A stretch of 64,000 bases of DNA from positions 256,001 to 320,000 of the forward strand of contig JAKFCY010000003.1 of NCBI GenBank assembly GCA_036676395.1, in the 5' to 3' direction. The position numbers and the translations under genes were made by a program. Every line of letters begins with the position of its first letter. Positions within the stretch are counted from its first letter, which is position 1. Shown one piece after another: positions 25,874 through 49,246 of this stretch. This stretch comes from Bdellovibrio sp. Lineage in GTDB: Bacteria; Bdellovibrionota; Bdellovibrionia; Bdellovibrionales; Bdellovibrionaceae. The notes under the pieces are model-generated. The model made no database searches. It worked only from the letters and a program-made list of their open reading frames with translations, and had not been told where the DNA came from.

Positions 25874-26311
25874 TTAAAAAGCCAGCTGGCTCAGAGTTGG
25901 AACTAACAGCAAAATGCAAATCGCCGGAAACACCAGAAAAATCAGGGGAATTTGCAACAGAAGCGGAAGTTTTGCCGCGTGTTCTTGAATATCGGCATCG
26001 CACATTTCAATAAAATCAGCCTCCAGAGCTTTTAACGGTTCGTAAATTGATTGTCCGCGCAGCCCATTTTCTAACAAAGTGATGATGGCTCTATGTTGTG
26101 CGTTAAAATGAGAAAGTTCGCTGACTTGAGTTTTCTGCCGTATTTGCCACCATTGTGCGAAATTTTTTGCGAATTGATCGTTCGAACTATAATGTTGCGT
26201 CATTCTTTGTGAAAATTTTTGTAAACCTTGTTGAAGCGACAGATTTTTTTCGATCGTGCGCTTAATTTCCCAAATTAAAAGTAAACTGCTCGGCAAATTT
26301 AGATTGTCCAT
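25874..26311 (-). CDS. TadC-like (T2SS F family) membrane protein
   Basis: G.SIYEPL...AAKLPLLLQIPLIFLVFPA..ILL. Confidence 0.7.
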   Translation of the reverse strand: MDNLNLPSSLLLIWEIKRTIEKNLSLQQGLQKFSQRMTQHYSSNDQFAKNFAQWWQIRQKTQVSELSHFNAQHRAIITLLENGLRGQSIYEPLKALEADFIEMCDADIQEHAAKLPLLLQIPLIFLVFPAICILLLVPTLSQLAF

Positions 26312-27054
26312 TTGATCTTACTTCCTATCTTTAAGATGACTGTAAGGCCCGCCAGCATTAGAAAAAACGAAATACCAATCACTGACGGGTAATTCGCTAG
26401 TTGAAGCTCAGCGATGGCAAAGAAAAGCAAAAACACATAAATAAAAGTCGCCACCACAGCCTGCGCGCGCACTTGTAGCGCTGATAGTCTCGACTTATGT
26501 CGCAAACTATTTTGAATGCGCAATCCGCGCTTAAATTGATCAATTTGATCAGAAACTCGTGTTGAAGAACGCAAAATAAAATACATTTCTTCGAAAAAAT
26601 GAGCCGAAAAGTTCTTTCGCGCGTAAATTGGCACTGCATTTGCGACCTTTTCACAACAGCTATCAACTTCGATGTAGTTCAGTGGTTCAAACACAATTTT
26701 TTCAACATGAGTGAGTGTGTGAAAGACTATTTTTGCAGATTTTATCGGTGATTGACCGCCTTTAATATGCAAATTTATCGCTTCAAGAACCTTGATTTGC
26801 CCTCTGAAAAACGTCTTTTTCAAAAATAATTCAAAATATATGTTCAAAAAGATCAAGCTCACAAGAATTAAGCCGATATAAATATAGAACAAGATCAGAT
26901 GTTCTTTGAAAAATAGAAAATAAAGACTCGGAATATTCAAAATGATGAACAACACTTTCCGAATTTTCGGAAAAATGATGTGAAAGTTCTCAAGCCGATA
27001 CACGAATCGATCCGAAATGAATAATCCGAATATCGAAATCAGTAAAAAAAGCAT
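26299..27054 (-). CDS. TadB-like (T2SS F family) membrane protein
   Basis: IKGGQS, LRHK...ALQVRAQA, C-terminal TM pair; adjacent TadC-like gene. Confidence 0.65.
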   Translation of the reverse strand: MLFLLISIFGLFISDRFVYRLENFHIIFPKIRKVLFIILNIPSLYFLFFKEHLILFYIYIGLILVSLIFLNIYFELFLKKTFFRGQIKVLEAINLHIKGGQSPIKSAKIVFHTLTHVEKIVFEPLNYIEVDSCCEKVANAVPIYARKNFSAHFFEEMYFILRSSTRVSDQIDQFKRGLRIQNSLRHKSRLSALQVRAQAVVATFIYVFLLFFAIAELQLANYPSVIGISFFLMLAGLTVILKIGSKIKWTI

Positions 27055-27112
27055 CCAAACCTCGCTTTCACGCAAAGTTGGGATTGCAAAATAAATGCAA
27101 GAATTTTTTTTG

Positions 27113-27141
27113 TTGACGGATTAAATCAATTTGTTAACAAT
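27113..27141 (+). promoter_or_regulatory. Sigma70-like promoter for microprotein gene
   Basis: TTGACG-N17-AACAAT preceded by a T-tract. Confidence 0.5.
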
Positions 27142-27221
27142 TTTAATAAGGGAGACTGAAAAGTCCAACAACAACAACAACGGTGATTCGTAGAAATACG
27201 TTCACTTCGAAGGAGCAACCC

Positions 27222-27305
27222 ATGGCTAAGAAAAAAGCAAAAAAAGCTACTAAAAAAGCTGCTAAAAAAACTACAAAAAAAGCTACTAAAAAGAAAAAAA
27301 AGTAG
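27222..27305 (+). CDS. 27-aa Lys/Ala/Thr microprotein MAKKKAKKATKKAAKKTTKKATKKKKK (histone H1-tail/protamine-like)
   Basis: AAGGAG SD 6 nt upstream of ATG; GCT/ACT/AAA codons; own terminator; absent from ORF track (below length cutoff). Confidence 0.8.
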   Translation: MAKKKAKKATKKAAKKTTKKATKKKKK

Positions 27306-27331
27306 TTGTTTTTGTAAAGCAGAAGCTTTGG

Positions 27332-27362
27332 AAGGGCTAACGTAAGTTGGTCCTTTTTTTTT
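27332..27362 (+). terminator. Intrinsic terminator of microprotein transcript
   Basis: aagggctaac-GTAA-gttggtcctt plus T9. Confidence 0.85.
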
Positions 27363-27406
27363 GCGCAAAATGAATCGGGATATAAATCATCTGTGAGATC
27401 CCAAAT

Positions 27407-27434
27407 AAAAATAGGCCCCAAGAGGGCCTATTTT
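27407..27434 (-). terminator. Intrinsic terminator (probably bidirectional)
   Basis: aaaataggccc/gggcctatttt inverted repeat. Confidence 0.8.
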
Positions 27435-27472
27435 ACGTTTAAAGCTGTTTTGTTAAGAAAAGTATAAAGAGC

Positions 27473-28075
27473 TTAGTAAAAGTAAGTTAAGCCTAAGCCA
27501 GCCGTTGGAAGATAAACTGAACTGTTTAATTCGCCCAACACCATCAACTCACCGTAAAAATTTACGCCGGCTAATTCGCCTTCAAGCTGGTTGTATTCTA
27601 AACCCATTCCCGCCGCCAAAAAGTTTGCAGAGAATTTGTTCTCTTTGATCTGATTTTCAGAAAGAACTCTATTTAAGATATCTGAACTTGAAGCGTCCGC
27701 TGATGAACTGTTTGAATTAAACCAGTTAGAATAGCCGACCTTAGTATATGGAGATAAGTAAGCAGCTTCATAATTATGTTTCCACGCGATATGAAACGAA
27801 TTATAGGCTTTGCCTCCGCCGATTCCAAACTCTAGAGCATCTTCTGGCTGAAGGTTAACTTCTAAATTAAAACCTAAACCACCAGTTAAACCGCCTGTAG
27901 AGACTCCTAAGCCGATTTTTTTATACTTCTTAAGCTCATAATTTGAATCGTAAAGTTCTACGCCTTCGTTATCAAATTTTTGGCTTTTAGAAAAAACTGA
28001 CTGATTTGTTGGTTCTGTTTGTGCGAAAGTAGCTGTCGAAGACAAAAAAGCTAATGCGATAATAAGTAATTTCAT
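27473..28075 (-). CDS. Outer-membrane beta-barrel protein
   Basis: Signal peptide ending TFA; Gly-rich strands; terminal LGLTYFY. Confidence 0.75.
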   Translation of the reverse strand: MKLLIIALAFLSSTATFAQTEPTNQSVFSKSQKFDNEGVELYDSNYELKKYKKIGLGVSTGGLTGGLGFNLEVNLQPEDALEFGIGGGKAYNSFHIAWKHNYEAAYLSPYTKVGYSNWFNSNSSSADASSSDILNRVLSENQIKENKFSANFLAAGMGLEYNQLEGELAGVNFYGELMVLGELNSSVYLPTAGLGLTYFY

Positions 28076-28207
28076 GCTGTAGGCCTCTCTTTTTTTAGCT
28101 TAGTTTAATCATTTTTGTCTGAATAGGAAACGAATTCTGCGAATCACTCATTGCAAATGCTATTGAACGTTTCAAAAGATTTTTTGAAAACCATTTTTAC
28201 CGACAGC

Positions 28208-48643: not shown

Positions 48644-49246
48644 TTATTTCGTTTTCTTAGTTGTTTTTTTAGCGGCTTTTTTAGCTGCTGTTTTCACTGA
48701 GCGTTTAGAAGTAGCTTTTTTAGGAGCTGCTTTCGCTGTGGCTTTCTTCTTAGGAGCAGCAGCTTTTTTAGCTGGAGCAGCCTTAGGAGCAACACCGTGA
48801 GCTGCTGCGCGGCCTAAACCGATGCCTGCTTCTGCACGAGCGCGTGAATCTTCAATTTTAGTTTGGATACGTTCAGCACGTAATGCTGTCATATCTTTTA
48901 CTACTGGTTTGCCTTCTGCTTTAGAAGATTGGCCATCTGGACCCGCGATAGCTTTAATGAAAATTTCAGTGAAATCTTGTTTGTGAGTTCCAAATTTACG
49001 GTAGCCTTGACGACGACGTTTTTTGAAAACGTACACTTTACGAGTGCGGGCTTGCTTAGTAACAACAACTGTAACACCAGCGTTTTTAACTAACGGAGAT
49101 CCCACGTGAGTTTTATCACCACCAACTAGTAATACTTCGTTGATTGTGTATTCTGCGCCAAGAGCTTGTTCAACCTTGTCGATTTGTAAAACATCGCCGG
49201 CTTGAACTTTATACTGTTTGCCGCCTGTTTTAATAATTGCGTACAT
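48644..49246 (-). CDS. rplU: 50S ribosomal protein L21 with long Lys/Ala C-terminal extension
   Basis: MYAIIKTGGKQYKV; about 95 extra C-terminal residues. Confidence 0.96.
   Translation of the reverse strand: MYAIIKTGGKQYKVQAGDVLQIDKVEQALGAEYTINEVLLVGGDKTHVGSPLVKNAGVTVVVTKQARTRKVYVFKKRRRQGYRKFGTHKQDFTEIFIKAIAGPDGQSSKAEGKPVVKDMTALRAERIQTKIEDSRARAEAGIGLGRAAAHGVAPKAAPAKKAAAPKKKATAKAAPKKATSKRSVKTAAKKAAKKTTKKTK

Follow-up and report, generated by a model that had tools for sequence, protein, structure and literature searches.

Organization of the transcription unit

In this work, a compact unit at positions 27113-27362 was analysed in the window, the whole 64,000-nt stretch of Bdellovibrio sp. 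contig JAKFCY010000003.1 from which all coordinates are counted. The ORF at its centre lies on the plus strand at 27222-27305, begins with ATG at 27222, ends with TAG at 27303-27305 and encodes the 27-aa peptide MAKKKAKKATKKAAKKTTKKATKKKKK. The peptide consists of 16 K, 6 A, 4 T and 1 M, as the initial annotation had reported, with a mass of 3,031 Da, a pI of 11.2 and a net charge of about +15.5 at pH 7. Lysine occupies positions 3-5, 7-8, 11-12, 15-16, 19-20 and 23-27, so the KKxx period described there is real, and the peptide amounts to six KKxx units with a very high positive charge. Pro, Arg, acidic, aromatic and hydrophobic residues are absent. The longest tryptic fragment has 3 residues, and the proposal that tryptic proteomics is blind to the peptide is therefore upheld. 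Both neighbouring genes, at 26299-27075 upstream and 27473-28075 downstream, are on the minus strand; therefore the unit 27113-27362 stands alone and is monocistronic, as had been proposed. The features of the unit are as follows.

27086-27111, plus strand: conserved upstream element, direct repeat GCAA-N7-GCAA followed by a T-tract, just 5' of the -35 box
27113-27141, plus strand: promoter-like site, -35 TTGACG at 27113-27118, 17-nt spacer, weak -10 AACAAT at 27136-27141
27154-27165, plus strand: predicted 5'UTR hairpin 1, GACU-GAAA-AGUC, 4-bp stem with a GNRA loop, near the predicted 5' end
27166-27181, plus strand: unstructured (CAA)n leader, CAACAACAACAACAAC, nearly invariant in the genus
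27183-27205, plus strand: 5'UTR hairpin 2, 9-bp stem with a GAAA or GCAA loop
27210-27215, plus strand: Shine-Dalgarno sequence AAGGAG, 6 nt 5' of the ATG at 27222, GGAG or GGAGG being kept in relatives
27222-27305, plus strand: ORF of the 27-aa Lys/Ala/Thr peptide including TAG, with coding-type conservation, orthologues and RNA contigs of two studies
27316-27329, plus strand: small conserved hairpin after the stop, AAAGC-AGAA-GCUUU, with AAAGC and GCTTT conserved and a variable loop
27330-27362, plus strand: intrinsic terminator, 12-bp stem with a GUAA loop (stem-loop 27330-27357), then T9

The TTGACG promoter, AAGGAG site, ORF and GNRA (GUAA) terminator from which the initial annotation had assembled its expression unit are thus all present. 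In a consensus scan, the TTGACG-17-AACAAT promoter matched at 9/12 positions. Its -35 box is unchanged in 20 of 20 aligned relatives, and in other genera the identical TTGACG is paired with a -10 of AAGACT or AACACT. The start predicted from these boxes is provisional, because the first position of one RNA-library contig is 27123, which precedes the predicted -10. The GCAA-N7-GCAA/T-tract element is kept both in the genus alignment and in the genus that holds the HD100 coordinate system, and a regulon search found the GCAA-N7-GCAA...TTGACG arrangement only once in the genome. It is possible, judging from its position and conservation, that this element serves as an UP element or a regulator site.

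The only change in hairpin 1 is U-A to U-G in 2 of 33 sequences, and since such invariance leaves no covariation, its fold is a prediction. The combination of hairpin 1 with the CAA repeat is single-copy in the genome; in a sample of the order, 23 of 25 genomes from the genus had it and 0 of 276 from other genera. On the other side of the genus boundary, AACAACAAC also occurs in the leaders of orthologues from another genus, and the (CAA)n leader may act as a translation enhancer. In hairpin 2, six pairs are retained despite two-sided changes, in up to 22 of the 33 distinct sequences compared by RNAalifold. The same method showed seven stem pairs of the terminator retained through two-sided changes in 3 to 17 of the 33, and the terminator fold (-20.8 kcal/mol, z = -3.3) was equalled by none of 200 shuffles. 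An Rfam search of the unit gave only sub-threshold chance matches and no known RNA family. Taken together, these features suggest that the mRNA is designed to be stable and to be translated heavily.

Selection on the reading frame

The 397-nt intergenic region was matched in 24 of 24 genomes of the same genus, with 78-96% identity where well matched. An open frame of 25-31 aa is retained in all 46 loci compared from the genus, and an alignment of 20 of these loci keeps the -35 box, the leader, the ribosome site, the ATG and the TAG. Conservation of the frame and of the Shine-Dalgarno sequence in relatives, which the initial annotation had named as a check on its proposal, is therefore borne out. 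Among the 33 distinct nucleotide versions from the genus, the variable columns at codon positions 1, 2 and 3 number 7, 5 and 20 of 34, respectively. Lysine columns show AAA/AAG exchanges only. Indels comprise whole codons every time, and one of them is a complete four-codon KKxx unit. The remaining positions hold A, T, S or V only. The +1 frame is often open, yet it contains stops in 5 of 20 loci, and the +2 frame is full of stops. Such three-base periodicity indicates selection on the protein frame, as a constraint on the RNA only would not produce it. The substitution pattern thus shows that purifying selection acts on the reading frame 27222-27305. It had also been suggested that modification of Thr or Lys could release the peptide from its target; this is pure speculation. 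The non-Lys positions drift, and T22 is the only nearly invariant residue among them.

A six-frame scan of the genome returned 10 open frames with a comparably Lys-rich 20-aa window, among which 27222-27305 is the only stand-alone short one. On the evidence of its sequence, 27222-27305 is a genuine conserved gene and not a chance frame. A longer product starting from GTG at 27183 (40 aa) was rejected, because the upstream extension is not conserved and the stop-to-stop frames in relatives measure 31-58 aa.

The transcript itself could be the functional product, either as a structured small RNA or as a regulatory ORF, for example a sensor of Lys-tRNA supply, in which the peptide has no function. 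The 5'UTR is conserved as strongly as the ORF and contains two GNRA hairpins, and in HD100-type genomes the transcript would resemble a small RNA of about 240 nt. The run of one codon (16 Lys codons of 27) is moreover what an attenuator leader would have. A leader peptide also requires a same-strand operon downstream, and there is none: in both genera examined, the terminator is followed by a convergent gene, and the leader-peptide reading was rejected. The three-base periodicity and whole-codon indels point to the protein frame, the non-Lys positions are limited to small residues, and the Rfam search gave no match. We therefore consider a function of the transcript without its peptide quite improbable.

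Distribution and the HD100 orthologue

A family-wide profile search of genomes at least 95% complete identified orthologous short ORFs in 58 of 99 family genomes and 8 of 23 genera, including 18 of 22 genomes of the own genus and 33 of 37 of the genus holding the HD100 coordinate system. All family matches sit in stop-to-stop frames of 29-73 aa. Orthologue length varies between 25 and 54 aa as KKxx units are gained and lost, and the first ~20 residues remain constant. In an alignment of 11 sequences from 6 genera, M1, A2, K3, K4, A6, K7, K8, K11, K12, K15, K16, K19, K20 and K24 are invariant. The profile search did not find the gene in 15 of the 23 genera; these negatives are soft, because the search also missed G110 and G002, two genomes that carry it. 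Family genera without the gene must compact their DNA otherwise, unless diverged forms were overlooked. Outside the family, profile matches occurred in 8 of 42 genomes of one other family, in frames of 188-776 aa, apart from one match in a 65-aa frame at a contig end. These matches are Lys/Ala segments of larger proteins, and no short-ORF form was found in the 42 genomes by this search, which is insensitive enough to miss known members in the genus.

The orthologue could be placed on the B. bacteriovorus HD100 map. A primer published for HD100 96,455-96,716 maps at 96,555 in genome G090, which was therefore taken to use HD100 coordinates. The small ORF of G090, detected by the profile search at E = 1.6e-6 (G090:3670617), begins at 3,670,617, and its 43 codons plus stop end at 3,670,748. 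In supplementary file 2 of Karunker et al. (2013; PMC3627812), exactly 3,670,617-3,670,748 is listed as Bd3800, hypothetical protein NP_970506.1. By its coordinates, Bd3800 is the HD100 orthologue of window 27222-27305. It has the first ~20 residues and the KKxx repeats of the window peptide but is longer, with 43 aa (10 repeats) against 27 aa. Gene order is the same in the window and in locus L061: a TadC-like (145 aa) and a TadB-like gene, both minus-strand, come first, followed by the plus-strand small ORF and a minus-strand outer-membrane-type gene. GCAA-N7-GCAA, the T-tract, TTGACG, the CAACAACAAC leader, a GGAGG site and the terminator are likewise present in both genera, whereas the Bd3800 locus lacks the genus-specific hairpin GACUGAAAAGUC of the window unit. 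Since the sequence is of low complexity, likeness between the peptides carries weight only together with this synteny and the shared promoter and leader. The small RNA of the hit locus at HD100 96,455-96,716 (Capeness 2013) is a different locus, as its primers are absent from 78 loci searched and map elsewhere.

The gene had been described as hidden and missed by the ORF track. This does not hold in HD100, where it is annotated as the hypothetical protein Bd3800. For the window itself, the 27-aa and 40-aa forms had no exact match in a collection of 15 billion proteins, and neither had the 36-, 43- and 54-aa orthologue forms; absence from this collection does not bear on annotation, because the 43-aa form is also absent though annotated as NP_970506.1. 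Bd3800 is not mentioned in the main text of the literature searched. Bd3800, NP_970506, Bd3799 and Bd3801 are absent from the supplementary files of Hocher 2023 that were searched, whose tables may use other identifiers.

Expression of the unit and of Bd3800

Metatranscriptome contigs from two studies cover the unit at 27123-27352 (X19) and 27157-27379 (X20), with 1 mismatch each. RNA-library contigs carry no information on level, strand or ends, so the fact that they end near the terminator, at 27352 and 27379, is a weak hint at best. A further X19 contig of 151 nt matches 27226-27263 only and appears to belong to another Lys/Ala ORF of another organism. Elsewhere in 26300-28100, RNA contigs cover 26908-27076 only, and the uncovered parts carry no weight. 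The coding substitution pattern, the covarying hairpin 2 and terminator, and these contigs agree with the description of the locus as a complete, conserved and expressed unit.

For the orthologue, the expression table of Karunker et al. (2013; PMC3627812) gives two time points, attack phase and growth at 3 h. In this table, Bd3800 rises from 270 RPKM in attack phase to 6,803 RPKM in growth (24-fold) and is flagged as expressed in both phases. Its neighbours have 3.1 and 10.4 RPKM (Bd3799) and 1.7 and 133 RPKM (Bd3801) in attack phase and growth, respectively. The corresponding values are 10.8 and 5,041 for the histone Bd0055, 6.0 and 2,861 for S21, 63.6 and 11,331 for L36, 9.9 and 3,313 for S6, 12.3 and 4,113 for L9, and 14,209 and 1,108 for Dps Bd2620 (PMC3627812). 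On these figures, growth-phase Bd3800 mRNA reaches the range of the mRNAs for the histone Bd0055 and for ribosomal proteins. None of the 8 attack-phase small RNAs of that study lies at the position of Bd3800, and its supplementary file 3 lists no Bd3800 transcription start (PMC3627812). The link to the attack phase drawn in the initial annotation, which had connected the peptide with the compact nucleoid of attack-phase cells, is thus not supported at the mRNA level. By analogy with what has been proposed for histone genes, the peptide could be made in growth and then carried into attack-phase cells, and its mRNA may peak late in growth as theirs does.

Several ribosomal proteins are very small and basic, among them bL36, bTHX, bS22 and eL41, and their discovery came late. 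The main rival for the role of the peptide is a ribosome- or RNA-associated micro-protein made in step with ribosomes, which would be a lineage-specific rRNA-binding ribosomal protein or assembly factor, or a general RNA coat. The growth-phase mRNA level, on a par with that of S6, L9, S21 and L36, speaks for it. So does the closest string to the peptide in the genome, the C-terminal Lys/Ala tail of bL21, which ends in the same KKAAKKTTKK. The growth/attack ratio, on the other hand, is 24 for Bd3800 against 156-282 for S6, L9, S21 and L36 in the published table, and the attack-phase level of Bd3800 is 4-45 times that of these four. Moreover, the gene is monocistronic and lies outside ribosomal operons, between a TadB-like and an outer-membrane-type gene. 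Repeat number varies freely (25 to 54 aa), which is unusual for a fixed ribosomal pocket, and no Pfam or NCBIfam ribosomal family was matched. A role at the ribosome or on RNA fits the data about as well as DNA binding or condensation does, and as a specific proposal we hold it to be rather unlikely though one to be kept in view. If it were correct, the peptide would count as a new micro-protein of the translation apparatus that is specific to this lineage.

Gram-negative outer membranes are sensitive to polycations such as protamine and polylysine, which disturb them. Expression of the orthologue during growth inside prey would also suit a peptide exported in intraperiplasmic growth, where it permeabilises prey envelopes or binds prey nucleic acids. 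The peptide has neither a signal peptide nor hydrophobic residues, and no transporter gene is attached to the unit, so this prey-directed function seems very improbable.

Proposed role of the peptide

Profile searches placed the peptide in no family: hmmscan against Pfam at E <= 10 matched 0 families, HC2 included, under HMMER composition filters that may suppress such matches; NCBIfam at E <= 10 matched 0 families and no ribosomal-protein model; and a PDB profile search gave 0 matches. With the 43-aa form, a protein search scored 7,902 candidates, none at E <= 0.001, a weak negative. All these negatives weigh little because the query is of low complexity. It follows from them that the resemblance to H1-like proteins lies in composition and repeats, and that any kinship is putative; the likeness in composition to H1-type Lys/Ala tails, noted at the outset, stands. 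In the ESM Atlas, the nearest named cluster to the orthologue scores 0.90 and has Pfam HC2 on 21% of its members, and the neighbours are clusters of hypothetical proteins of 42-46 aa from Minisyncoccota, Moraniibacteriota and Nitrospinota (scores 0.95-0.96); both are leads only. AlphaFold2 modelled the 43-aa orthologue as one helix with a mean pLDDT of 84.8, which is weak evidence, because any Ala/Lys run would yield one.

With no hydrophobic, aromatic, acidic, Pro or Arg residue available, electrostatic binding of polyanions is the only plausible chemistry. Most likely, the peptide is a stand-alone H1-tail-like polycation that would bind DNA, and possibly RNA or ribosomes, by its charge. Composition by itself cannot separate DNA from rRNA, mRNA or polyphosphate as the partner. 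For the last of these, the AlgP paper discusses Lys-rich tails as possible partners of polyP or RNA coacervation. A Lys-rich low-complexity polycation such as the one encoded here would be suited to bind polyphosphate or to drive coacervates, as proposed for the AlgP tail, and not to act on the chromosome. No polyP genes lie in the neighbourhood, and we regard this reading as improbable.

Stand-alone basic peptides bind DNA in other bacteria, and chromosomal DNA is the target that we favour for the polycation. That DNA is the main target we put somewhat below an even chance. Three considerations favour it: the nucleoid of this lineage is unusually dense and its determinants are described as unidentified in reviews; the mRNA level of the orthologue equals that of the essential histone; and, by analogy, the stand-alone basic peptides ScvA and Hq1 act in this way elsewhere. 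How a chromosome of 3-4 Mb is packed so densely in Bdellovibrio that even free GFP is excluded is acknowledged in the same reviews as an open question, the factors behind the extreme compaction being still unidentified. A recent preprint states that histone genes peak late in growth, ahead of compaction, that compaction does not require transcription or translation to continue, and that the histone, on its own, leaves E. coli DNA uncompacted (bioRxiv 10.1101/2025.09.24.678257).

We propose the following scheme. The mature peptide, of about 26-27 residues and a net charge of about +16, would serve as a counter-ion encoded in the genome. It would attach to the phosphates of nucleic acids regardless of sequence and would probably fold into a single helix upon binding. 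On chromosomal DNA, it would help to neutralise charge and to compact the nucleoid of very small cells. It would be produced while the chromosome is being copied and inherited by the progeny, and would not be induced in attack phase.

The most far-reaching form of this proposal is a 'genetic polyamine': a stand-alone helix-forming (KKxx)n peptide, present at the levels of ribosomal proteins or histones, neutralises the charge of DNA and is, together with the histone, the missing factor of the dense nucleoid. We advance it tentatively, as a minority possibility. It would mean that the peptide has escaped every proteome, since trypsin yields pieces of 1-3 residues. It would also mean that the look-alike 42-46-aa proteins of ultra-small (CPR) bacteria point to a general solution for packing DNA in small cells. 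The analysis provides a concrete and previously unstudied compaction candidate, a conserved peptide of about +16 whose orthologue mRNA is as abundant as that of the histone, and HD100 is a genetically tractable host for work on bd3800. The case also illustrates how highly expressed genes can escape gene callers that apply a cut-off near 30 aa.

Comparison with known basic proteins and tails

In the same genome, Lys/Ala tails are carried by topoisomerase I, a sigma-70-type factor, a SWIB-domain protein and bL21, and Lys/Ala runs are also found in two H1-like proteins of ~190 aa and in GTP cyclohydrolase I. Except for the last, these are proteins that act on nucleic acids, and their likeness to the peptide favours a nucleic-acid target. 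The tails of bL21, topoisomerase I, the sigma-70-type factor and the SWIB protein have the same repeat chemistry as the window peptide, but they are appendages on folded proteins, whereas the window peptide is such a tail alone, with its own promoter and terminator.

The bacterial H1-like Lys/Ala-repeat proteins include chlamydial Hc2/HctB (PF07382) and Hc1 (PF07432), Pseudomonas AlgP and the C-terminal tail of mycobacterial HupB. Hc2/HctB, AlgP and the HupB tail share with the window peptide short Lys/Ala repeats, an extremely high positive charge and, presumably, a hold on DNA or other polyanions that is driven by charge. Hc2/HctB, AlgP and HupB are longer than 100 aa or form tails attached to a folded domain, and Pro is usually present in them (KPAA, PAKK). 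The window peptide differs from them in standing alone, in having 27 aa and no Pro, and in matching no profile. The C-terminal domain of histone H1 is likewise a disordered polycation that neutralises DNA charge, situated within a larger protein, and H1-tail peptides turn helical on DNA.

Sperm protamines are Arg-rich, eukaryotic small polycations that neutralise DNA charge, and ScvA is rich in Arg and Gln. With fewer than about 50 residues and strong basicity, the window peptide has the size and charge of protamines and ScvA, but it is not Arg-rich: it contains 0 Arg, and all of its charge comes from Lys. In Coxiella burnetii, the small cell variant is enriched in ScvA and Hq1, which are described as small basic proteins that bind DNA (PMC4766238). 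Thus, ScvA resembles the window peptide as a very small basic peptide of a bacterium with a compact-nucleoid developmental form. The two differ in timing, with enrichment of ScvA in the condensed form and the highest mRNA level of the window orthologue in the growing form. Lys/Ala-repeat H1-like polycations were therefore already known, and what is new here is their reduction to a free micro-protein of 25-54 aa in part of the Bdellovibrionaceae.

The microprotein locus and its neighbourhood

The window encodes a 27-aa Lys/Ala/Thr microprotein. Within the genus of B. bacteriovorus HD100, the corresponding short ORF was seen at a single locus per genome, with the exception of G163, where a second copy lies on another contig (C2:71484-71573). 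In the alignment of the relatives' loci, one locus (L016) has gained an insertion of ~23 nt downstream of the stop codon and ahead of the terminator, and it is a duplicate of the small AAAGC...GCTTT hairpin. The genes divergent to the small gene, named by appearance, are:

25874..27075, minus strand, TadC-like (145 aa) and TadB-like (258 aa) gene pair

The same arrangement of this pair beside the small gene is kept in the HD100-type genus (L061). Two metatranscriptome runs from different studies (X19 and X20) each contain a contig of ~150-170 nt at window positions 26908..27076, which covers the initial portion of the TadB-like gene together with the region around its start. With 13 mismatches, the contig from X20 is derived from a relative. 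This RNA may represent either a 5' fragment that is stable or a small transcript in its own right.

Lys/Ala-rich sequences elsewhere

In the genome carrying the window, Lys/Ala-rich tails were identified on a SWIB-domain protein, topoisomerase I, a sigma-70-type factor, GTP cyclohydrolase I and two H1-like proteins of ~190 aa, the domain names being given by sequence appearance. As a group, these six are encoded at:

C2:918961-919362, C2:521714-524431, C2:2322695-2323261, C2:2555619-2556755, C2:2606400-2607038, C2:1983516-1984232

Such tails look like a habit of the lineage. Within the window, a further tail was observed on:

48644..49246, minus strand, ribosomal protein bL21 (200 aa) with a C-terminal Lys/Ala/Pro tail

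The usual length of bL21 is about half of this. The tail ends in ...TAAKKAAKKTTKKTK and has the string KKAAKKTTKK in common with the microprotein.

Record 4 of X19, an RNA-library contig of 151 nt, matches the window at 27226..27263 only, its flanks differ from those of the microprotein locus, and it encodes another Lys/Ala-rich ORF terminating in ...KKA and a stop codon. Similar Lys/Ala micro-ORFs from other organisms seem to be transcribed in soil. By searching the ESM Atlas with the orthologue from a relative (L064:1444-1572), the closest clusters were found to be hypothetical proteins of 42-46 aa, with 55-166 members per cluster, from ultra-small bacteria (Minisyncoccota, Moraniibacteriota) and Nitrospinota. 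Polylysine/alanine micro-proteins that stand alone may occur widely.
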